Shown one piece after another: positions 12,170 to 61,063 of a stretch of 64,000 nt of DNA. The notes beneath the pieces are model-generated. The model worked only from the letters and a program-made list of their open reading frames with translations. It did not search any database and was not told the DNA's origin. The number at the start of each line of letters is the position of its first letter. Positions within the stretch are counted from its first letter, which is position 1. The stretch is from Candidatus Microgenomates bacterium (GTDB taxonomy: Bacteria > Patescibacteriota > Microgenomatia > UBA8517 > JACQJR01): assembly GCA_016204995.1 (NCBI GenBank), contig JACQJR010000001.1, forward strand, positions 473,666 to 537,665, in the 5' to 3' direction. The position numbers and the translations under genes were made by a program.

Positions 12170-13120
12170 TTAGAGTGTATCTGCACATGGTTGGCAGATC
12201 TTGCACGGACCTACTTCGCGGCTTTTATTACAGACTCGGCAAACTCCAAAATGCCATCCTTCCTCATGTGTTGCTGTTTTCAAACTGCCATCAGCATTCA
12301 TTTGATAATAATTAAATTCATATCCTTGCATTAATTCTAAATTAGAAATACCGCAGCCAAATTTTTTAGTATCCATTCTCCACCCCATTTCCATCATTTG
12401 TCTTTCTGCCAAAGCTCCAGCCAGTAAATAATCGTAATTAGTTTGGGCTTCACTAATAAGAGAGATTACTGCTTGGGTAATTGAGCGCGCATCTTGTTTG
12501 GCTACTTCCTTAATTTTTTCCGGAGCGGCGGTTTTAATGGCTTGCCAGATTTGGGGTAAGGGAATAAGATTTTCCAAAAAGGTAAATTCGTCATCCGGTC
12601 TGGGAAGGTGAAAAGTCATGCTTCTGATATCTTTAATATTGGTAATCGGCGGATAGGGCATGGGTGATAAATCGGTAATTTTCCTGGCTATGTCTATATA
12701 TTTTTCCTCAATCCATGAATCAATAGGAATGCCCCAACAATTAATAATTTTCCCTGAAAGGGCCCCTTCGGGGTTGGTGGTGCTGATACCAACTACTAAT
12801 CTACCTTCTGGATAGGGTTTAGGCGGGCTGAACCAGATGGCTAGGCTATCTTCTTTTTGGCCTAGAAAATAATTTTTAAACATTAATGCAGCCAGAGCTG
12901 TCTCGCGGTCTAATTCTGTCTCCCAGGCACAACCTTCTACTAAATCTCTATCATTTTCATTAACCAGTTGATCTTGGTTTACCTTTAACTGATAAGGATT
13001 AATTCGTTGATCTGGGGGAACATCATTAACTTCAATTGCGAGAGATGCTAAATCATCCACCAGTTGGAAGGAAGAAGCTTTCTGATATAAACTGGTATCA
13101 AAGGCCAGACGTTCAGCCAT
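12170..13120 (-). CDS. Hypothetical protein with a C-terminal Cys-rich zinc-ribbon-like tail
   Basis: 316 aa, no TM. C-terminus CRVCNKSREVGPCKICQPCADTL (CxxC...CxxC...C). Confidence 0.45.
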   Translation of the reverse strand: MAERLAFDTSLYQKASSFQLVDDLASLAIEVNDVPPDQRINPYQLKVNQDQLVNENDRDLVEGCAWETELDRETALAALMFKNYFLGQKEDSLAIWFSPPKPYPEGRLVVGISTTNPEGALSGKIINCWGIPIDSWIEEKYIDIARKITDLSPMPYPPITNIKDIRSMTFHLPRPDDEFTFLENLIPLPQIWQAIKTAAPEKIKEVAKQDARSITQAVISLISEAQTNYDYLLAGALAERQMMEMGWRMDTKKFGCGISNLELMQGYEFNYYQMNADGSLKTATHEEGWHFGVCRVCNKSREVGPCKICQPCADTL

Positions 13121-13281
13121 AGTTCCTGCTCGGGATAAATTAAGAAGTTGCTAGTTTTCTGGCTATAACAGTTGCGGCACAGCTCCGGAATTACACCGGA
13201 ATTCCTTCAACACAACTTCGTTATTGACTATGTCAAAGATAGAATTGACTGTCAAGGGGGTTTTCGTGTTAAAATGCAGAC

Positions 13282-27418: not shown

Positions 27419-27859
27419 ATGCAGATTCTTAACCGCCGCGCCCCTTACGAGTACATATTATTAGACAGAATTGAAGCTGGAATTATGCTGGCTGGCAGTG
27501 AGGTTAAATCTATCAAAAACGGCCGCTTAGATCTCTCTACCAGCTTTGCCAGAATTAATAATGGAGAGGTTTATCTGGTTAATGCCAATATCCCTCCTTA
27601 CCAGGGAGGAGTACCGGAAAATTATGATCCTAGCCGTAGCCGTAAGCTTCTTTTAAGTAAAGATGAAATCCTGTCTTGGGAGACTAAATCCAAGCAGCAA
27701 AAATTGACAATTGTGCCCACCAAAGTATATACTAAAGGACAGCTGGTTAAGGTGGAATTAGCCTTGGCCAAGCCTAAACGCCAGTTTGAAAAACGTGAGG
27801 CTAAGAGAAAAAAAGATGTGGCGCGTGAGGTAGAAAGAGAACTTAGATTACGGGGATGA
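27419..27859 (+). CDS. smpB: SsrA-binding protein SmpB
   Basis: 146 aa. RRAPYEYILLDRIEAGIMLAGSEVKSIKNGRLDL...SRKLLLSKDEI is a classic SmpB sequence. Confidence 0.9.
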   Translation: MQILNRRAPYEYILLDRIEAGIMLAGSEVKSIKNGRLDLSTSFARINNGEVYLVNANIPPYQGGVPENYDPSRSRKLLLSKDEILSWETKSKQQKLTIVPTKVYTKGQLVKVELALAKPKRQFEKREAKRKKDVAREVERELRLRG

Positions 27860-28215
27860 CAGGTTTCGACGGAGAGCACCTTAACACTATAGCAAGCCGG
27901 CTTTGATGAATAGCCGTTAAACAGCATCAAAACAAAAGCGTCAACTCAAAAGGTAACGCTCCAGCATACGCTTACGCGTCTTAAACTGCTGGCATCTTTA
28001 CTAGGCTCTCCTGTGGTTTGGATAAAGGTGTAAAAATAGCAGGATGCTTTTCAAGTTTGGTTGATCAGCAAACTTGAAGAAAAGACTTTCTGAAATTACT
28101 TAAAAATGAGTGTCAATTATCAAATTTTTAAGGACATAAAATAATTGACTAAGCTTGTATAACTATAGTATTTCGGTCTTTTCGGATGAGGGTCCAATTC
28201 CCTCCATCTCCACCA
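27852..28215 (+). ncRNA. ssrA: tmRNA (ssrA)
   Basis: 5' end GGGGATGACAGGTTTCGACGG. 3' tRNA-like end GGATGAGGGTCCAATTCCCTCCATCTCCACCA with encoded CCA. The 5' GGGGATG pairs with the 3' CATCTCC. A candidate tag ORF ends ...NAPAYAYAS-stop. Confidence 0.85.
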
Positions 28216-53033: not shown

Positions 53034-53459
53034 CTAGAATGACAATCGGTGGCGGAGGCGGTCGCCTAGACTTTCACCTTGGTGGTGTGTAGCTTCATGA
53101 GTTTTTTCGCGCGCTTCCATCCTTAATTTTTCATTTTCTTCTTCCAGATCATGAATTTCTTTCTGTAGATTAGAAATAGTTTTTTCGTCGTCTCTAATTT
53201 GGCGGTCTTTGTCAGAAATCATGGCGGTAGAGGATAGCCAGCCGCCCAGGTTAAACACCCAGGCAGCGAGCACTCCCGCCATCAATGACCCCAGTGCTAT
53301 TAAATATAAAGGAAAAGTCCAGGTATAAATTCCAGCATGCAAAGTTATCAGAGCCGTGTTTTGAGTAGCTAAGAAGGCAAAGCCAGCTCCTAATATTACT
53401 GCCAAAATAAGAGTTAACATATAACTTATATAATAGTAAAAGGGTGAGAAACCAAGCAA
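53034..53459 (-). CDS. LapA-like membrane protein with a C-terminal coiled coil
   Basis: Two N-terminal TM helices, then a heptad region (ISNLQKEIHDLEEENEKLRMEARE). Confidence 0.4.
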   Translation of the reverse strand: MLGFSPFYYYISYMLTLILAVILGAGFAFLATQNTALITLHAGIYTWTFPLYLIALGSLMAGVLAAWVFNLGGWLSSTAMISDKDRQIRDDEKTISNLQKEIHDLEEENEKLRMEAREKTHEATHHQGESLGDRLRHRLSF

Positions 53460-53583
53460 AGGAAGGCAAGAAATAGGTAAGAATTACATTTTCTTCTCTT
53501 ACACAGTTCTTGCTTATTGTTGCTTTAATTTTAATTATTGGTCTTTATAGTCTAAAAAGACAAAGGAGGTGAGAATAAATTTT

Positions 53584-53835
53584 ATGGGGATTATATCTTG
53601 GATTATTTTTGGAGCAGTAGTGGGGATTATTGCTAATGTTCTTGATCCTCAACCTGCCAAAGGAGGTTTGCTAGGTGCTATTGTTTTGGGCGTAATCGGA
53701 GCGATGGTGGGAGGTTTTTTGAGCAGTTTATTCTTAGGTATAGATGTGACTGGTTTTAACTTACCATCATTTGCGATTGCCGTCGGAGGATCGTTATTGC
53801 TACTATTTATTGGACGGGCACTGGCTCGTTATTAA
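53584..53835 (+). CDS. GlsB/YeaQ/YmgE-family small membrane protein (transglycosylase-associated protein family)
   Basis: MGIISWIIFGAVVGIIANVLDPQPAKGGLLGAIVLGVIGAMVGGFL. Strong SD AAGGAGGTGA 9 nt upstream. Confidence 0.65.
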   Translation: MGIISWIIFGAVVGIIANVLDPQPAKGGLLGAIVLGVIGAMVGGFLSSLFLGIDVTGFNLPSFAIAVGGSLLLLFIGRALARY

Positions 53836-53850
53836 GGAGGTGAAAAAACG

Positions 53851-54033
53851 ATGGCAAAGTACGGTAAAAAAGCTCAAGAAAAAGTAGAGCAGACGATGCA
53901 TGAGTATAAGCAAGGTAAGCTGCGCTCCGGCAAAAGCGGTCGGGCGGTCAGAAGCCGAAAACAGGCGATTGCAATTGGTTTATCCAAAGCGCGTCGCGCC
54001 GGAGCGAAAGTGCCACCTGCGCGCGAAGAGTGA
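53851..54033 (+). CDS. Small basic hypothetical protein (60 aa)
   Basis: Preceded by SD AAGGAGGTGA. K/R-rich. Confidence 0.4.
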   Translation: MAKYGKKAQEKVEQTMHEYKQGKLRSGKSGRAVRSRKQAIAIGLSKARRAGAKVPPAREE

Positions 54034-54046
54034 AATATAATATAAT

Positions 54047-54853
54047 TTGGGCGTGACACGACTCATCATTGTTCTTAGTTTAATTTTTTGGCCCCTTAGT
54101 TTATTTTTAGCCAATACTGTAGGTGATTTTGTTAAATACTTTTTTCCAGTCTTATTGCTTATTTTAAGTTGGCAATTATTTAAAAAGAACAACTCGCTAT
54201 TTTTATGGCCTACTTTGCTAATTCCTTTTTTTGAGCCAAAACTGGCTGTTCTCCCTTTGCTGTTAGGAGTAATGAATCTGAAACGCCACTGGTTATTTAT
54301 TGGAGCAACAGCGATAGTTTTAGCGTTTAATTTTAAAGCTTTTTGGGGTCAAACTATTTTTAAGGCTGATTATGAGGCCCAGCAGGAAATTATTGGCAAG
54401 TCATATCTTTATCCTAATGTGCCGCTGGCTCGGCTTTTTCAAAATAAAGGCCGGATTTATGTAAATAAATTTACTGCTAATTTTCTAGCATTAAGCGATC
54501 CTAATAATTATTTTTTTGGTTTTCATCCTCGGGAAATAAAAGTTGATAATCAAAATTTAAGGAAATTTCCCTTTTTAGGAATAATGTTTATGTTGTTAGG
54601 ATTTTATTATTTGGCCCAGTTGCCGCAAAAGAAATTTGTCATGGTGCTTTTAACTGCTTCTTTCATTTCTTTAACTGTTTTAAATATTTTTGACCGTCAT
54701 GATGTTATTTTATGGTTACCCCTATCTATACTTTACATTCATGGGGTAAAAGAATTTTCTACTAAGAAGTGGTGGTGGCACCGACTTAATCGGGGTTTTT
54801 ATGTAGTGTTTATTATTTTTACTGTCTGGGAATTAATTAGATTATTTTTATGA
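54047..54853 (+). CDS. Polytopic membrane protein, partner of the downstream GT-C glycosyltransferase
   Basis: 268 aa, about 8 TM helices. 4 bp overlap with the downstream gene. Confidence 0.45.
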   Translation: MGVTRLIIVLSLIFWPLSLFLANTVGDFVKYFFPVLLLILSWQLFKKNNSLFLWPTLLIPFFEPKLAVLPLLLGVMNLKRHWLFIGATAIVLAFNFKAFWGQTIFKADYEAQQEIIGKSYLYPNVPLARLFQNKGRIYVNKFTANFLALSDPNNYFFGFHPREIKVDNQNLRKFPFLGIMFMLLGFYYLAQLPQKKFVMVLLTASFISLTVLNIFDRHDVILWLPLSILYIHGVKEFSTKKWWWHRLNRGFYVVFIIFTVWELIRLFL

Positions 54854-56508
54854 TTAAAAGGCTGTTGATTTTATCCATTCTACTAACAGCTATTGTTTTG
54901 GCCATAGTCACTCGCTTTTATAAACTAGGGACGGCGCCGGCCGGACTATATTTGGATGAGGCAGGTCAAGGTTATAACGCTTATTCAATTTTAAAAACTG
55001 GACGAGATGAGTTTGGTAAATCATTTCCTTTTGTTTTTCGATCGTTTATTGATTTTAAAACCCCAGTGTATGTTTATTTAATTGTACCCTTAATTCCTTT
55101 TTTTGATTTAACCCCCCTTACAGTCCGTTTACCCTCATTTATTTTCAGTATTTTAACTTTGCCGATTTTGTTTCTATTACTTAGGAAACTTTCACCGCCA
55201 AAATTAGCTATTCCTTTATCATTACTTTCTACTTTGCTCTTAGCTATCTCGCCTTGGCATATTCTTTTCGGAAGGACGAATTTTGAGTGTAATGTAGCCT
55301 TATTTTTTTTCTTAGCAGGAGTTTATTTTTTCTATAAATCTCTGGCTAAGCCTATTTGGCTGATACCGGCGGCAGCACTATTTGCTGTTGCTATTCCGGC
55401 TTATCATTCGCAAAGAATTGTTACGCCAGCCATCTTAATATTTTTATTAATTCGTTATCGGCAAAAGCTGCTGGCCAAGAATTTTCGCCCCTTTTTAATT
55501 TTAAGTTTGGCAATTGGATTGATTATCTCTTTGCCGACGATCAGCATTATGTTTACACCAGGATTTTTGGCGCGCGCTGCTGGACTTAATATTTTTTCAA
55601 GTCCTCACCCAGCCGGTTTTCTAGATAATTATCACGGATGGTGGGAATGGTTAGTTAACAACAGAATTTTTCTATCAACTTGGGAGTTTGCCTCGCTGTA
55701 TGTTTCTTATTTATCACCGCGCGATATGTTTTTATTGGGGGATTATGGGCCGCGCAGTTCATTTCCGGAACTAGCCACTTTCTATCTTTGGCAATTTCCT
55801 TTTTATCTTTACGGAATTTATCTATTAATTAAAAACAAAACTTTAGGCGAGCTGCGGACTTTTTTAATGGCCTTTTTATTAATTGCTCCCATTCCGGCCG
55901 CTTTAACCCGCGATCCATATTCCACCATTCGGGCTTTACCTTTAGTAATTCCCCAGCTAACTATTATTGCTTTGGGGATGATATTTTTTTGGCAAAAATT
56001 TAGTAGTAAATTATGGCGATGGGGGATGATGATAGCTTTAGCGATAATAGTTTTTTATTCCCTGACTAAACTTTATAGTTCAGTGATTATCTTAAATGAA
56101 TTTTTTAGGGCCAAGTATTGGGATTATGGCTGGCAAAAAGTAGTAGAAGTTATTCAACGTGACTTGGATCCAAAATTACCGATTGTGGTAGATAACAGCC
56201 GCTTTGAGCCTTATAGCCAGTTAGTTTTCTTTTTAAAATATGATCCCCTTAAGTACCAGCATGATAATTACGAGGTACCTTTGAATGAGTATTACGCCAA
56301 TATGAATAGGAATAGGACCAAAATAATTGGCAACATTATAACGCGAGCAATTGATTGGGAGCATGATTTGTTAGCAGAACAATATTTGATTGGCGATGAG
56401 TTGTCTATTTCTTACACTCAAATTAAGGAACATAATTTAACATTAATTTCCGAAATTCTTTATCCCGACAGAAGCGTGGCTTACCGAATTGTCAAAATCA
56501 AGAAATAA
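54850..56508 (+). CDS. GT-C fold membrane glycosyltransferase (ArnT/PMT family-like), second copy
   Basis: 552 aa. First loop YLDEAGQGYNAYSILKTGRDEFGKSFPFVFRSF carries DE..RDE acidic motifs typical of GT-C. Confidence 0.55.
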   Translation: MIKRLLILSILLTAIVLAIVTRFYKLGTAPAGLYLDEAGQGYNAYSILKTGRDEFGKSFPFVFRSFIDFKTPVYVYLIVPLIPFFDLTPLTVRLPSFIFSILTLPILFLLLRKLSPPKLAIPLSLLSTLLLAISPWHILFGRTNFECNVALFFFLAGVYFFYKSLAKPIWLIPAAALFAVAIPAYHSQRIVTPAILIFLLIRYRQKLLAKNFRPFLILSLAIGLIISLPTISIMFTPGFLARAAGLNIFSSPHPAGFLDNYHGWWEWLVNNRIFLSTWEFASLYVSYLSPRDMFLLGDYGPRSSFPELATFYLWQFPFYLYGIYLLIKNKTLGELRTFLMAFLLIAPIPAALTRDPYSTIRALPLVIPQLTIIALGMIFFWQKFSSKLWRWGMMIALAIIVFYSLTKLYSSVIILNEFFRAKYWDYGWQKVVEVIQRDLDPKLPIVVDNSRFEPYSQLVFFLKYDPLKYQHDNYEVPLNEYYANMNRNRTKIIGNIITRAIDWEHDLLAEQYLIGDELSISYTQIKEHNLTLISEILYPDRSVAYRIVKIKK

Positions 56509-56543
56509 CTTGACAAGTCATATTGTGATGTGTCCATAATGAA

Positions 56544-56777
56544 GTGGTGAACGAAAGAGGAATTGTTACCCTAATTCCCCTACTCCTTTTACTGCTAGCA
56601 GTAGTAGTTATCTATCTTCTGGTCTCTGGCGGGATCATCAAAAATCTTAACCTACCTGGTTTGAAAAAAGAGGCCAAAGTAGAACTGCAAACACAATATC
56701 AAAATCCCTTTGATAAAGATGCTCAATATGTCAATCCTTTTGCTTCCTACAAAAACCCATTTGACCAACTAAAATGA
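56544..56777 (+). CDS. Small single-TM protein
   Basis: 77 aa. TM LIPLLLLLLAVVVIYLLVSGGII. Overlaps the downstream gene by 4 bp. Confidence 0.3.
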   Translation: MVNERGIVTLIPLLLLLLAVVVIYLLVSGGIIKNLNLPGLKKEAKVELQTQYQNPFDKDAQYVNPFASYKNPFDQLK

Positions 56778-58426
56778 GAAGACTTATTTTTTTGGCAGTC
56801 ATGATGATTTCCTTGGTGGTAGTGACTCCAGCTTACGGTCAAAGTACTGCAAATAACCCAGAAGAAATTGCCCAGAAATATAATGTTACCTTTCCCATTG
56901 CTGATTTGGGAGGATGTACAGATTATGCCTCATGCAGGACTTTTTGCGAAGATCCGGTCAATGCCGCCAGCTGTATAAATTACGCCAAGTCAAAAGGTTT
57001 TTATAAAGAAGACGTCATTGAAACCAAAAAAGAAGTAGTTTTGCGGGCTGCCAGGCAAACACTAGGCTGTGATTCCCAGGAGTCATGCGTGAGTTTTTGT
57101 TCTTTGGCAGAAAATCACGACAAATGCGACGCTTTTGCCAAAAGACAAGGATTGGCTGGCGGACGGGTAGAGGATCCCAGTAAAACCCAAGTAATTGCTA
57201 AAGCTAAGGAAATTCTGGGTTGCGATTCTGCTGTTGGTTGCCAATCTCTTTGTTCTCAAGAGGAAAACAGACAGAAGTGTTCAGATTTTGCCAGACAAGT
57301 GGGTTTGCGGGGCGGCGAGCGACAGGTTGGCCCGGGAGGATGTAATAGCGAAGAATCCTGTCGGTCCTATTGTAGCGATCATGAAGATGAGTGTCGGGGA
57401 GTGGGGGGCCCTGGCGGCTCTCCGCCGCCTGGTTATAATCCGCAGGAAATGTGCAGTAGAACTCCCAATTGCCGCTGGGAAAATGATACTTGCCAATGCA
57501 GTTCTTACGGGAGGCCAGAGGATGCCGCCAAAAGAGCGGAAGAATACGCCAAGTTCTGTCGGGAGAATCCTGATAAGTGTAGACCGGGCCAACCAGGGGA
57601 TTTTAGAAATGAGAAGGAACGGAACAGCTTTGAAGATTATTGCCGCCAAAATCCTGAAAGATGTATCTATCAGGGTACAGCTTCCTGTTCAGGACCAAGC
57701 GGCGGATGTGGCTCGGGATACAGTTGGGATAAAGGGACTTGTACTTGTAAACCATCGTCTGGCTGTCCGGCGGGTACTTCCTGGAATGGTTCATATTGCA
57801 TGAAAGATTCTGGCCCTTCTGGCGGAGGTTGCTCTCCGCCTGCTGGAGGATGCGGCAGCGGTTGGTTTGACAATAGTTCCTGTTCTTGTAAACCGGCTTC
57901 AGCAGAAGGTTGTTACAATGTGTCGGCCTCCAGTTGCGGCAGCGGATTTACTTGGGATGCCTCTGCCTGCACTTGTCGCTCTAATACGCCTAGCGGTGGC
58001 GGAGGTAGTTGCGGTTCCGGTACCTACTGGACCGGCTCTTATTGTAAAGAATATTCTGAAGGTTCAACGCCGGCCGGCGGAGGTGGTTACACCAATACTC
58101 AAACCCAATATGAAGATCCGGCTACTGCTTGCGCGAGAGGTACTAACTGTACTTGGACCGGCAGCAGTTGTAATTGCACTCCTTCCGGCGGCTCATCGGG
58201 ATCCAGCACTCCTGCTCCTGAACAGCCGCAGCAATCCACTCCTCAGCCGGAGCAACCCGCCCCCCAACCTGTTCCAGATTCCGGTTCTTCCGGCGGCTCA
58301 TCAGGCGGTAGTTGCCCGGAGGGTTCTTACATGAAAGACGGAGCTTGTGTGTCAGGAGTTCAGGGAGTCAGTACTGTCAGGGGCATCTTTAAACAACTGT
58401 TAGATCTTTTCAGTGTTTGGTTTTAA
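56774..58426 (+). CDS. Secreted Cys-rich protein with four tandem 35-40 aa Cys modules and a G/S/C/P-rich tail
   Basis: Signal peptide, then repeats GC(T/D/N)(D/S)..SC(R/V/Q)(T/S)(F/L/Y)CS......C..(Y/F)A(K/R).G x4. Then CxxGxxW and GGSSG low complexity. About 45 Cys in total. Confidence 0.55.
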   Translation: MRRLIFLAVMMISLVVVTPAYGQSTANNPEEIAQKYNVTFPIADLGGCTDYASCRTFCEDPVNAASCINYAKSKGFYKEDVIETKKEVVLRAARQTLGCDSQESCVSFCSLAENHDKCDAFAKRQGLAGGRVEDPSKTQVIAKAKEILGCDSAVGCQSLCSQEENRQKCSDFARQVGLRGGERQVGPGGCNSEESCRSYCSDHEDECRGVGGPGGSPPPGYNPQEMCSRTPNCRWENDTCQCSSYGRPEDAAKRAEEYAKFCRENPDKCRPGQPGDFRNEKERNSFEDYCRQNPERCIYQGTASCSGPSGGCGSGYSWDKGTCTCKPSSGCPAGTSWNGSYCMKDSGPSGGGCSPPAGGCGSGWFDNSSCSCKPASAEGCYNVSASSCGSGFTWDASACTCRSNTPSGGGGSCGSGTYWTGSYCKEYSEGSTPAGGGGYTNTQTQYEDPATACARGTNCTWTGSSCNCTPSGGSSGSSTPAPEQPQQSTPQPEQPAPQPVPDSGSSGGSSGGSCPEGSYMKDGACVSGVQGVSTVRGIFKQLLDLFSVWF

Positions 58427-58440
58427 AAGGAGGTGAGAGA

Positions 58441-58650
58441 ATGATGAAAATGTTGCACATAGCCGCCTATACGCTGTTATGGGTAGGTGGTTTGAATTGG
58501 TTACTGGTGGCTTTTAATTTTAATTTAGTGGAAACCCTATTGGGAACAGGTTCCATGTTAACCAACGTAGTTTATATTTTAGTAGGTTTGTCTACAGTTT
58601 ATATTATTGCGGCCCATAAGAGTGATTGTAAGGTATGTGGGAGTAAATGA
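58441..58650 (+). CDS. DUF378-family small membrane protein
   Basis: MMKMLHIAAYTLLWVGGLNWLLVAFNFNLVETLLG...VYILVGLSTVYII. SD AAGGAGGTGA. Confidence 0.6.
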   Translation: MMKMLHIAAYTLLWVGGLNWLLVAFNFNLVETLLGTGSMLTNVVYILVGLSTVYIIAAHKSDCKVCGSK

Positions 58651-58702
58651 TTAAAAGTAGTACAAAAATGCTTATCAGATAGAAGCTGGAGTTGGATGAT
58701 GG

Positions 58703-59083
58703 TTATATCTTTTTGGTGTAGGAAATTGATCCGCCGTTTTTGAGGGTGAAATCTACATTTAGTTTGATATTTTTTACCCCTTTATGATAAACACAAACTT
58801 TCTTGGAGCAGGTGCCTAAAAGCAGAGTGCGGGCGAGAGTCGCGCCTTTGGGTTTAACGGTGCCGCTGACACCTTGGGCGCCTTTGGTGGAATCATAAGT
58901 TAAAGTGTATTTAAACGATTTGACGTTTGTTAAATTGGCAAAGTTGATGATGACCGATAATTTATTCTTAGATAAAGTAATGCCCGCGGAGGGATTTTTG
59001 CCGACCTTTTTAGGAGCAGCTTGTATAGGAACCGCCAGTCCCAGAAAAAGTAATAGTCCCAACACAAAAACAATTTTCTTCAT
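58703..59083 (-). CDS. Secreted hypothetical protein
   Basis: Signal peptide MKKIVFVLGLLLFLGLAVPIQA, then a beta-rich region. Confidence 0.4.
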   Translation of the reverse strand: MKKIVFVLGLLLFLGLAVPIQAAPKKVGKNPSAGITLSKNKLSVIINFANLTNVKSFKYTLTYDSTKGAQGVSGTVKPKGATLARTLLLGTCSKKVCVYHKGVKNIKLNVDFTLKNGGSISYTKKI

Positions 59084-59140
59084 TATTTAAACTTTCTTAA
59101 GTCAAGCTTTGCTTATAATAGCATATTCTTGACTTCGATT

Positions 59141-59175
59141 AAATCGGTCCCGATTTAATCGGGATCGGGGTTGAC
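59141..59175. promoter_or_regulatory. Cluster of overlapping perfect palindromes (cgattaaatcgg tc ccgatttaatcgg gatcgg) in a divergent promoter region
   Basis: ccgatttaatcgg is a 13 bp perfect palindrome. ttaaatcgg / ccgatttaa form a 9 bp inverted repeat with a 2 nt spacer. Confidence 0.4.
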
Positions 59176-59225
59176 AAAGGGAAAAGATAATAACTAAACT
59201 GAAATACAAGGAGGTGATGGAGTAA

Positions 59226-59432
59226 ATGGCAAAGAAAAAAGCGACAACAAAGGCCTGGCACGAGCAATGGAAAGAGTACGCTCATTGGTTAATTGCAGGC
59301 AGCATTTTAGCAGTCATTTTAGCTAGTGTTGGCTATATGGGTGTTGATATTTGGTTGGCTTCTACTCAATGGCTCTTGGTAGCGGCAGTGTTGGCGGCTC
59401 TGGGCGTCTACGCGAAACTGGAATCAAAGTAA
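59226..59432 (+). CDS. Small two-TM membrane protein
   Basis: SD AAGGAGGTGATGG upstream. Two hydrophobic helices. Confidence 0.4.
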   Translation: MAKKKATTKAWHEQWKEYAHWLIAGSILAVILASVGYMGVDIWLASTQWLLVAAVLAALGVYAKLESK

Positions 59433-59525: not shown

Positions 59526-60248
59526 ATGCTTGATATCAGTTTGCCGGTGGCTTTTGTGGCCGGAGTTGCTTCGGTTTTTGCCCCCTGCGTAGTGCCTTTG
59601 CTGCCGGTTTATGTGGCTTATGTGACCGGCATAACGCTGACTGATTTAAAAAAGCATAATGATGCCATTTACCAGCGCAGACTTCTTTTAGCCTCCCTTT
59701 TTTACGTGTTGGGATTTTCTCTAATTTTTATAATGTTGGGTCTGGCCGCGGCCGGCATCGGGGGATGGCTGCGTCATTATCAGTCAATTTTACAGATCAT
59801 TGGCGGCATCTTAATTACTATCTTTGGTTTAGAACTGGCCGGGATTATCAATTTGCCGCTTTTGGCTCGGGGCAAAATGCTAATTTTGCCAGCCTGGACT
59901 GCGCGACTTGGTTACGGGCGACCACTGCTGATTGGTATGCTTTTTGCTCTGGTCTGGGCTCCTTGTGTGGGAGTGATATTGGGGGCCATTTTGACTATCG
60001 CAGCCGTTCAGGGCCAAGCGTTTCTGGGAGTGCAGCTATTATTTGTTTACTCACTGGGCATCTCTCTTCCCTTTATCCTTATTTCCTTAACCTTAGGCCA
60101 TTTACATAAGTATTGGAGTTTTGTGAGTCAAAGTAGCATCATCCTATCCCGTGCCAGTGGTTTTTTATTGCTGATGATAGGAGTATTATTAATGACTAAC
60201 ACTTACAAATATGTCAATAATTGGATTTTTGCCTTATTATTAAAATAA
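59526..60248 (+). CDS. ccdA: CcdA/DsbD-core thiol-disulfide transporter (cytochrome c biogenesis protein CcdA family)
   Basis: Two conserved Cys, each within a TM helix (VFAPCVVPLLP and VWAPCVGVILG). 6 TM helices. Confidence 0.7.
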   Translation: MLDISLPVAFVAGVASVFAPCVVPLLPVYVAYVTGITLTDLKKHNDAIYQRRLLLASLFYVLGFSLIFIMLGLAAAGIGGWLRHYQSILQIIGGILITIFGLELAGIINLPLLARGKMLILPAWTARLGYGRPLLIGMLFALVWAPCVGVILGAILTIAAVQGQAFLGVQLLFVYSLGISLPFILISLTLGHLHKYWSFVSQSSIILSRASGFLLLMIGVLLMTNTYKYVNNWIFALLLK

Positions 60249-60379: not shown

Positions 60380-60808
60380 ATGAGTAAAAATTCCTTGATC
60401 ATTTTTGGTGTTTTAGTGGCGCTGGCTTTAGGAGCTTTAGTTTTTGTGATGCTGGCTCCTAGTAAGAATATTCCTGGGCCAACTGCGACTATGACACCTG
60501 TTGTAAATCCTGCTGCTCCTCAAGCCGGTGCGGTACAAGAAATAGAAGTAAGTGGTAGTGAATATAAATTTACTCCTCGCACCTTAGTCTTTACCAAAGG
60601 CGAGAAGGTGAAATTAACTTTTAAAAACATGGGCAAAATGCCGCATAATTTAATGATTCCCGAACTTAATGTAGCGACTGACACCATTGCCGGCGGTGAG
60701 ACCACTACTGTGGAATTTACTCCGGGAGAGAGCGGTAGCTTTGCCATGTTTTGCAGCGTGGGCAATCATCGGGCCCTAGGCATGGAAGGAATGATGGAGG
60801 TAAAGTAA
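60380..60808 (+). CDS. Membrane-anchored cupredoxin (plastocyanin/azurin-type blue copper protein)
   Basis: N-terminal TM, then type-1 Cu ligand set H (MPHNLMIP) ... C-x2-G-x-H-x4-M (FCSVGNHRALGMEGMM). Confidence 0.65.
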   Translation: MSKNSLIIFGVLVALALGALVFVMLAPSKNIPGPTATMTPVVNPAAPQAGAVQEIEVSGSEYKFTPRTLVFTKGEKVKLTFKNMGKMPHNLMIPELNVATDTIAGGETTTVEFTPGESGSFAMFCSVGNHRALGMEGMMEVK

Positions 60809-61063
60809 ATGCGGGTTAAAATTTATTCCACAGTAACTTGTCCTTATTGCAAAATGCTTAAGGACTATCTAACTGAAAAAAAGATTACCTTTGAAAATGT
60901 GTTTGTGGATCAGGACGAAAAGGGTAAGGAAGAAATGATGCAGGCTTCAGGCGGATTTTTAGGGGTACCATTTACGGTGATAACTAAGGGTGATGGGATC
61001 AAAGAAACAGTATTAGGATTTGACAAGAATAAGATTAATGACGTACTCGGAATAACCGGATAA
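60809..61063 (+). CDS. Glutaredoxin / NrdH-like thiol-disulfide oxidoreductase
   Basis: KIYSTVTCPYCKMLKDYL is a CPYC active site in a thioredoxin fold. 84 aa. Confidence 0.7.
   Translation: MRVKIYSTVTCPYCKMLKDYLTEKKITFENVFVDQDEKGKEEMMQASGGFLGVPFTVITKGDGIKETVLGFDKNKINDVLGITG

Follow-up and report, generated by a model that had tools for sequence, protein, structure and literature searches.

Cys-rich extracellular repeat proteins are, as a general kind, already known from the candidate phyla radiation (CPR). The Peribacteria encode large examples, about 1,650 amino acids (aa) long and about 7% Cys, that weakly resemble FG-GAP or the Cys-rich repeats of Myxococcus and have been proposed to provide rigidity or surface attachment (Anantharaman et al. 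2016, PMC4736985). We analysed 64,000 nucleotides of contig JACQJR010000001.1 from Candidatus Microgenomates bacterium (hereafter, the window), focusing on a gene for an exported Cys-rich protein. Like the Peribacteria proteins, it combines export, high Cys content and a CPR source with a lack of functional annotation; unlike them, it is built from a distinct C-x5-C-x3-C-x8-C three-helix module without a Pfam match, is paired with a gene for an NPF-motif protein, and ends in a conserved C-terminal helix. In Microgenomates-type CPR (Patescibacteria) bacteria, the gene is the larger of two that form a strictly conserved cassette, and our preferred but tentative interpretation is that its product is a non-enzymatic, disulfide-stapled surface scaffold or adhesin tethered by its tail, by its NPF partner, or by both. 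Literature on the Cys-rich family, on NPF motifs in Patescibacteria and on Cys-rich CPR proteins offered general statements only, and the module, the obligatory NPF partner and the C-terminal tail appear to be undescribed in the libraries and literature that we searched.

The Cys-rich gene is the second gene of a conserved cassette

The two genes and the main features of the first are as follows (window coordinates):

56544..56777, + strand: partner gene, encoding a 77-aa single-pass membrane protein (GenBank MBI4059142.1)
56562..56630, + strand: predicted transmembrane helix of the partner (about aa 7-29, IVTLIPLLLLLLAVVVIYLLVSG; read from the sequence)
56697..56774, + strand: three C-terminal NPF motifs of the partner (YQNPFD, QYVNPF and YKNPFDQLK)
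56774..58426, + strand: gene for the Cys-rich exported protein (ATG start, 550 aa, 46 Cys; GenBank MBI4059143.1)

The open reading frame (ORF) of the Cys-rich gene was found exactly where a first-pass annotation, made from the letters of the window without database searches, had placed it, and GenBank lists the product as 'hypothetical protein HY404_02800' of Candidatus Microgenomates bacterium. Its start codon overlaps the stop codon of the partner gene as ATGA. The partner, which is absent from the first-pass annotation, is the only strictly conserved neighbour of the Cys-rich gene: a small NPF ORF lies directly upstream of 46 of the 47 family genes in related loci L008-L053, the sole exception being located at a contig end, and directly upstream of those in L001, L003, L005-L007, L054 and L056. 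Distant family members with 8-12 modules also have the partner, in their case with four NPF(E)/NPL(E) motifs, and where the whole cassette is duplicated in tandem (L007, L026 and L031) both copies include the NPF gene. A profile search returned 830 matches to the partner. Among the 120 homologues listed, the median length is 82 aa, the best 19-aa window has a mean Kyte-Doolittle hydropathy of 3.1 and starts at about residue 8, and the NPF-type motif occurs three times in 85 proteins and four times in 34. The motifs of the window partner (N54-F56, N64-F66 and N71-F73) are invariant in alignment A2.

A promoter and terminator scan of positions 53400-59300 produced counts equal to those in shuffled sequence. 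The 35-nt gap that separates the NPF gene from the glycosyltransferase gene of the GT-C type upstream of it does contain TTGACA and CATAAT (window 56510-56540), a pair that the scan overlooked owing to its 19-nt spacer; if used, it would yield an NPF mRNA that is nearly leaderless.

A head of tandem four-Cys modules

The N-terminal part of the Cys-rich protein comprises:

56774..56839, + strand: Sec-type signal peptide (aa 1-22; MRR, a hydrophobic core, then PAYG/QS; read from the sequence)
56885..57007, + strand: head module 1 (aa 38-78), VTFPIADLGGC-x5-C-x3-C-x8-C..YAKSKGFYK
57008..57160, + strand: head module 2 (aa 79-129), a linker helix and two helices with C99, C105, C109 and C118
57161..57313, + strand: head module 3 (aa 130-180), with C150, C156, C160 and C169
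57314..57418, + strand: head module 4 (aa 181-215), GPGGC190-x5-C196-x3-C200-x6-C207

A signal peptide followed by Cys modules had been recognised in the first-pass annotation, and a Sec-type signal peptide is indeed seen. It is present in essentially all family members, conserved in position and not in sequence (occupancy 0.98, identity 0.19), and AlphaFold2 (AF2) predicts a helix at aa 2-15, with low confidence for the segment that comes next. The pattern C-x5-C-x3-C-x8-C then starts at Cys48, Cys99 and Cys150, and a shorter version, C-x5-C-x3-C-x6-C, starts at Cys190. These modules are true repeats, with Smith-Waterman scores 5.5 to 17 standard deviations above shuffles and 22 of 49 residues (45%) identical between modules 2 and 3. 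The four tandem repeats proposed earlier are therefore real, but the proposed unit of ~38 aa is not: the first three modules repeat every 51 aa and the last has a period of 40, around a conserved core of ~35 aa.

The head is also the best conserved region of the protein. The four Cys of every module are invariant across the family alignments, and among 93 relatives (the set behind the occupancy and identity values given for each region of the protein) the modules show 46-63% identity to the window protein with an occupancy of about 1.0. In alignment A1, the invariant positions of module 1 are P41, L45, G46, C48, C54, C58, C67, K74, G75 and F76. The AF2 model of the head, built from 121 sequences, has a mean predicted local distance difference test (pLDDT) score of 82, with 114 residues at >=90 and module 1 scoring >90. 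In this model each module is predicted to form three helices: a linker helix, a helix bearing the Cx3C pair, and a helix with the fourth Cys.

Whereas 71 of 80 complete family members have five head modules and the other nine have six, the window protein has four. Its module 4 is a fusion of modules 4 and 5 of its relatives, formed by an in-frame deletion of ~47 aa (alignment A1, columns 237-300). The junction lies at window 57380-57390, between aa ~203 and 204, and joins 'GPGGCNSEESCRSYCSD' to 'HEDEC'. Because the exact 550-aa sequence has also been recorded from an independent Logan assembly, the deletion is probably real and not a mis-assembly.

A conserved middle part, a variable stalk and a conserved tail

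The remainder of the protein is divided as follows:

57419..57673, + strand: conserved middle part (aa 216-300), a beta-hairpin knot and two helix staples
57674..58183, + strand: variable stalk (aa 301-470), Cys-stapled beta-hairpin modules of the CGSG(Y/F/W)xW...C(xC) and C-x10-C types
58184..58309, + strand: Pro/Gln/Ser/Gly-rich low-complexity linker (aa 471-512), pLDDT <50, predicted to be disordered
58310..58354, + strand: last C514-x10-C525 hairpin (aa 513-527), predicted strands 518-521 and 524-527, pLDDT about 78 (AF2)
58355..58423, + strand: conserved C-terminal tail (aa 528-550), VQGVST, a short spacer and the amphipathic helix GIFKQLLDLFSVWF

The knot of the middle part reads YNPQEMC-x5-C-x-W-x4-C-x-C, with C227, C233, C240 and C242, and AF2 predicts that its CRWENDTCQC unit is a beta-hairpin with strands 233-236 and 239-242. 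It is followed by the helix staples F-C262-x6-C269 and Y-C290-x6-C297, for which helices are predicted at 248-264 and 280-292. Occupancy of the middle part is 0.79 and identity 0.38. The two staples (aa 252-269, window 57527-57580, and aa 280-297, window 57611-57664) share the motif (F/Y)(E/A).(Y/F)C..NP(E/D).C.

Past the C-x6-C pair lie about eight small CGSGxxW...C(xC) or C-x10-C units, with hairpins predicted by AF2 at 316-327, 335-344, 392-401, 417-426 and 459-468. The last unit of the stalk is a canonical 'DPATACARGTNCTWTGSSCNC' knot (aa 448-470), with pLDDT 92-93 for aa 451-470. Both the C..G..W and the C.C(K) mini-modules of the first-pass annotation are present in the protein, as is the PQ/GS-rich low-complexity segment that it had assigned to the C-terminus, at about aa 471-512. 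The stalk is where the family diverges: aa 301-447 have 9% identity to the window protein and an occupancy of 0.34, the stalks of relatives are PQ-rich, YYTP-rich or Gly-rich, and other low-complexity linkers, such as YYTP repeats, take the place of the PQ linker.

Conservation returns at the C-terminus, where the tail has 32% identity and an occupancy of 0.84, and G531, the Gly of VQG, is invariant or nearly so. The tail helix is predicted at 538-549 with pLDDT about 84 (AF2). Among eight family tails, the hydrophobic moment is 0.5-0.8 in six and 0.28-0.33 in two, and the tail is more plainly hydrophobic in some distant members. When a hidden Markov model (HMM) built from 96 tails was run against all ORFs of the window and of 56 loci (about 550 kb), only family genes matched, always at the C-terminus, with the window protein scoring 25.2 bits (E 2e-6 within this set). 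Although we discuss the tail below as a candidate anchor, the VQGxST motif with its invariant Gly could instead be a processing or sorting site.

Cysteine content and base composition

The 46 Cys counted in the 550-aa protein bear out an earlier estimate of ~45, and are accompanied by 73 Gly, 70 Ser and 38 Pro. Cys accounts for 8.4% of residues, whereas the remaining predicted genes of the window together reach 0.61% (113 Cys in 18,493 aa), so that this one gene holds about 29% of the Cys codons in 64 kb. In our view this amounts to a heavy investment by these organisms in extracytoplasmic disulfide chemistry. The Cys count is even in 79 of 80 complete family members.

The gene had been described as GC-richer than its surroundings, and it is (0.50 vs 0.41 +/- 0.05). 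The entire excess falls at codon position 2 (GC2 of 0.60 vs 0.38 +/- 0.04 in other genes), with GC3 at 0.41 against 0.36 +/- 0.07 in the neighbours, and Gly, Cys, Ser, Pro and Ala are encoded with the same synonymous preferences as in the other window genes. The raised GC is thus an effect of amino-acid composition, arising because the gene is rich in Gly, Ser, Cys, Pro and Ala codons. The horizontal-transfer signal that the first-pass annotation had thought codon usage and GC3 might hold is not there, as both match the neighbours, and horizontal transfer is ruled out as the source of the GC excess.

A large family without a match to described domains

Using aa 1-305 as the query, we retrieved 315 homologues, the best with 65% identity and E-values down to 1e-144, all of them unnamed and without a Pfam domain, from Daviesbacteria, Roizmanbacteria, Gottesmanbacteria and other Microgenomates. 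Species-representative genomes, scanned for the pattern, contributed 46 loci and extended the range to Woesebacteria and Levybacteria, and a profile search of 1.84 billion representatives returned 1,793 proteins (clustered at 50% identity) at E<=1e-3, including 1,021 at E<=1e-30. Distant members have 8-12 modules of the form GPGGC-x5-C-x3-C-x8-C..FA...GL. The window protein has the features that mark the family, namely a signal peptide, a (F/Y)P(I/V)xxLGxC start and tandem GPGGC-x5-C-x3-C-x8-C..FA...GL modules (alignments A1, A3 and A7), together with an upstream small transmembrane protein with 3-4 NPF motifs and VQGxST plus an amphipathic helix. In the distant members P0249, P0129 and P0199 the same four-Cys modules are fused to Laminin_G_3 (ConA-like lectin) or Big_13 Ig-like domains.

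The tandem cassette duplications mentioned above span L007:7705-13806, L026:5660-9565 and L031:2-7764. The second copy in L007 (941 aa) retains both the head and the VQGVST tail, but its stalk is replaced by a 'YYTP' repeat of ~500 aa that is rich in Tyr/Thr/Pro, and between the two L007 cassettes lies a gene for a different Cys-rich protein (L007:9493-10680; 395 aa), which has an N-terminal hydrophobic segment and no Pfam match on record. The first copy in L031 is apparently broken by a stop or frameshift. Many metagenome-assembled genome records with a Microgenomates-type cassette are titled 'uncultured Gammaproteobacteria bacterium' (L011, L014, L015, L017, L018 and others); these titles look like placeholder or mislabelled taxonomy, as the genes are of the same CPR type.

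The statement in the first-pass annotation that the protein resembles no nameable family held against every library searched. In Pfam-A (hmmscan, E<=1) the only match was CP12 (PF02672; E 0.58, 11.4 bits against a cut-off of 22.7); NCBIfam (E<=1) and PADLOC gave none, PHROGs gave weak, non-significant matches only (E 0.37 and 0.072), a sequence profile search of the PDB gave 0 matches at E<=10, and a Foldseek comparison with the PDB matched no solved fold (best E 1.3). Granulin-, EGF- or anaphylatoxin-like domains can be set aside, there being no Pfam-A match besides CP12, no PDB match and no fold similarity. No catalytic-type domain was found by the Pfam, NCBIfam or PDB searches.

A model for the cassette product

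These features are consistent with the following model. Gene 1 would encode a membrane protein of ~80 aa that spans the membrane once and displays three C-terminal (Y)xNPF(D/E) motifs on the outside, and gene 2 would be translationally coupled to it through the ATGA overlap. The product of gene 2 would be exported by the Sec pathway and consist of a head of four (normally five) modules, the middle part, the hypervariable stalk and the C-terminal amphipathic helix, such that a rigid head is displayed at the tip of a flexible, wall-spanning stalk. Anchoring could be provided by insertion of the amphipathic helix into the outer leaflet of the membrane, by docking of head modules on the NPF peptides of the partner, or by both, and the disulfides would be made by general machinery of the MdbA/VKOR type, not by the products of the nearby CcdA, cupredoxin and glutaredoxin genes. 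The enrichment of CPR genomes in MdbA-like oxidoreductases and VKOR (PMC6744442; bioRxiv 10.1101/335083) makes disulfides plausible in these exported proteins. The C-x6-C and C-x10-C units, which hold only two Cys each, can only be disulfide loops, and the even Cys counts and the invariant Cys of the head modules also speak for pairing. Two further lines of evidence support a surface or adhesive role: the Laminin_G_3 and Big_13 fusions of distant members, and the attachment role proposed for Cys-rich proteins in another CPR lineage (PMC4736985).

Several observations do not sit easily with this model. The four Cys of a module could equally form a metal site as two disulfides. A normal transmembrane anchor would have to be longer and less polar than this tail. 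The positive charges flanking the partner's helix (2.3 vs 2.1) leave its orientation ambiguous by the positive-inside rule, and the number of NPF copies (3-4) does not follow the number of modules (4-12). Finally, the neighbours of the cassette vary widely and include housekeeping genes, so that, apart from a weak envelope theme (PBP1 in four loci and GT2 in ten upstream genes), the context says little about function.

A bolder version of the scaffold or adhesin model, which we regard as unlikely, is that the two genes specify a surface system of two components that occurs across the CPR and has not been described before. In it, the disulfide-stapled three-helix modules would act as bacterial receptor domains of a new class, recognising short NPF peptides in a prokaryotic counterpart of EH-domain/NPF recognition, the partner would serve as an anchor or assembly platform, and VQGxST plus the helix would constitute a C-terminal signal of a new kind, for sorting or for anchoring. 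If so, the system could belong to the host-contact apparatus of episymbiotic CPR cells.

CPR/Patescibacteria account for a large share of bacterial diversity and are mostly uncultured. They apparently live in attachment to other cells, and hardly any of their envelope proteins have been characterised. With at least 1,793 clusters at 50% identity and a defined module, partner and tail, the family is a concrete candidate for a lineage-specific surface structure, and the head module and the NPF protein could each be converted into a profile family for annotation. The practical value would be modest if the product is merely a structural 'hypothetical' surface protein.

Gene neighbourhood and alternative explanations

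To place the cassette in its genomic context, we relied on five inspected loci (L001, L003 and L005-L007) and on a Pfam census of up to two neighbours per side in 46 further loci. Besides the partner, neighbours recur in a minority of loci: a class A penicillin-binding protein (PBP) in four, GT2 in ten upstream genes and MsrB in three loci. In the window, the following genes lie on the same strand as the Cys-rich gene:

54850-56508, + strand: GT-C glycosyltransferase (PMT_2, 2.2e-9)
59526-60248, + strand: CcdA (DsbD_TM, 2e-18)
60380-60808, + strand: cupredoxin (Cupredoxin_1, 1.9e-13)
60809-61063, + strand: glutaredoxin (Glutaredoxin, 1.1e-12)

Among the alternatives to a displayed scaffold or adhesin, an accessory factor of envelope biogenesis or division, such as a regulator or scaffold of peptidoglycan synthases, draws on the recurrent neighbours. 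The class A PBP (Transgly + Transpeptidase) is encoded directly downstream of the cassette in four related loci and nearby in L007, FtsE/FtsX are encoded upstream in L056 and SecD/SecF downstream in L054, VanW and FemAB are also among the neighbours, and the cassette lies among housekeeping genes with apparent vertical inheritance. However, these associations are confined to a minority of loci, mostly from one Daviesbacteria-like clade, none of these genes adjoins the cassette in the window, and it is more typical for displayed proteins to have hypervariable stalks and to be fused to lectin or Ig domains. We therefore consider this explanation quite unlikely.

The chance that the protein is an extracytoplasmic metalloprotein, in which each four-Cys module binds Zn, Cu or Fe-S for metal sequestration or electron transfer at the surface, appears slim. 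Every head module does have exactly four invariant Cys at fixed spacing, Cys counts in multiples of two also fit Cys4 sites, and the source organisms come mostly from anoxic groundwater, judging by record titles. Against metal binding, many units have only two Cys (C-x6-C and C-x10-C) and can form disulfide loops only. Neither His nor CxxC-type metal motifs are conserved, no metal-binding family or fold was matched (Pfam, NCBIfam and Foldseek), and Sec export of an unfolded chain, together with the MdbA/VKOR enrichment of CPR genomes, favours disulfides.

The first-pass annotation had read the surrounding GT-C, CcdA, cupredoxin and glutaredoxin genes as signs of a surface module dedicated to oxidative folding or redox chemistry, in which the Cys-rich protein would be the client or the working component. 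Its domain assignments were confirmed by Pfam, the genes are nearby and on the same strand, and an exported protein with 46 Cys does require thiol-disulfide chemistry. The context, however, does not recur: CcdA/DsbD, cupredoxin, glutaredoxin and GT-C are absent from the five inspected loci and do not figure among the Pfam families seen most often in 118 flanking genes of the related loci. Within the window, a DUF378 gene, a gene on the opposite strand and a further small ORF stand between the Cys-rich gene and CcdA, and the glutaredoxin is probably cytoplasmic, since it has no signal peptide. Synteny thus largely refutes this reading, which we now regard as very improbable. Least credible of all is the idea that the Cys-rich protein acts as a secreted toxin or bacteriocin against which the small NPF membrane protein confers immunity. 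A small membrane protein beside a secreted disulfide-rich one is indeed a common bacteriocin-immunity layout, but the pair is kept at 40-65% identity across several Microgenomates classes and beyond in variable housekeeping contexts, a distribution unlike that of patchy, mobile toxins. The gene that would confer immunity precedes the other and is translationally coupled to it, the Cys-rich protein lacks a catalytic or pore-forming domain, and PADLOC was empty and PHROGs non-significant, as given above.

Glycosyltransferase genes often precede the cassette on the same strand, as in the window, where region 54047-56508 holds a PMT_2-type GT-C gene, and pairs of GT2 genes lie upstream in about five related loci (L010, L012, L015, L018 and L045). 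Together with the Ser/Thr/Pro-rich stalks, these genes hint at O-glycosylation of the Cys-rich protein. Downstream, the gene for a DUF378 membrane protein (58417-58650, + strand, Pfam E 5.8e-16) overlaps the end of the Cys-rich gene or follows it immediately, and is not conserved beside family members elsewhere. Farther away, the window contains an AdoCbl-II (cobalamin) riboswitch aptamer (13145-13218, - strand; 41.7 bits, gathering score 36.5) upstream of a minus-strand ORF with 8 Cys and a CxxC motif (12170-13120), a tmRNA gene (27852-28215, 145.8 bits) directly after a 146-aa ORF that is presumably smpB (27419-27859), and a cluster of tRNA genes at 32.7-34.5 kb.

Comparison with known systems

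CHCH proteins (twin-Cx9C), small Tim proteins (twin-Cx3C) and plant alpha-hairpinins (Cx3C...Cx3C) are built from two antiparallel helices with two symmetric CxnC motifs. The head modules resemble them in having short helices that would be joined by two disulfides, with one Cx3C on one helix face. Unlike these hairpins, the modules are asymmetric, with one Cys ahead of helix 1, the Cx3C within that helix and a lone Cys in helix 2, and they have a third (linker) helix and occur as tandem repeats in an exported bacterial protein. With a single Cx3C plus two isolated Cys, and no CHCH match in Pfam, the modules do not belong to any of the three groups. CP12 (PF02672) presents a more local likeness, as its C-terminal disulfide loop is resembled by the motif (F/Y)E.YC..NPE..C of the Cys-rich protein; the two helix staples of the middle part gave rise to this match. 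In our protein, however, the loop is C-x6-C and the protein is exported and is not a chloroplast or cyanobacterial regulator, and we rejected CP12 identity on the basis of a sub-threshold match that covers only 16 residues.

The EH domain is a small helical domain that reads NPF motifs in eukaryotic endocytosis. The cassette may be analogous in that several closely spaced NPF motifs, followed by acidic residues, would be offered to a small helical domain. It differs in its location in a bacterial envelope and in head modules that lack an EH or EF-hand signature; as neither Pfam nor the fold searches gave a match, we do not regard the modules as EH domains.

Gram-positive LPXTG sortase substrates share the overall layout of the Cys-rich protein: a signal peptide, a head, a stalk of low complexity rich in Pro/Thr/Ser/Gly, and a conserved signal at the C-terminus. 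Unlike those substrates, the window protein has neither LPXTG or a related motif nor a ~20-residue hydrophobic span followed by a basic tail. No sortase, exosortase or rhombosortase signal (LPXTG, PEP-CTERM, GlyGly-CTERM or similar) was recognised, with no NCBIfam match at E<=1 and a tail helix of about 14 residues that includes K, Q and D. Another parallel for the tail may be found in E. coli PBP5 and PBP6, exported enzymes that are anchored to the membrane by a C-terminal amphipathic helix. In both cases, a Sec-exported protein ends in an amphipathic helix of ~15 residues without a transmembrane span, through which the Cys-rich protein could be held at the outer leaflet of the cytoplasmic membrane; unlike in PBP5 and PBP6, the helix is preceded here by the family-specific VQGxST motif with its invariant Gly.

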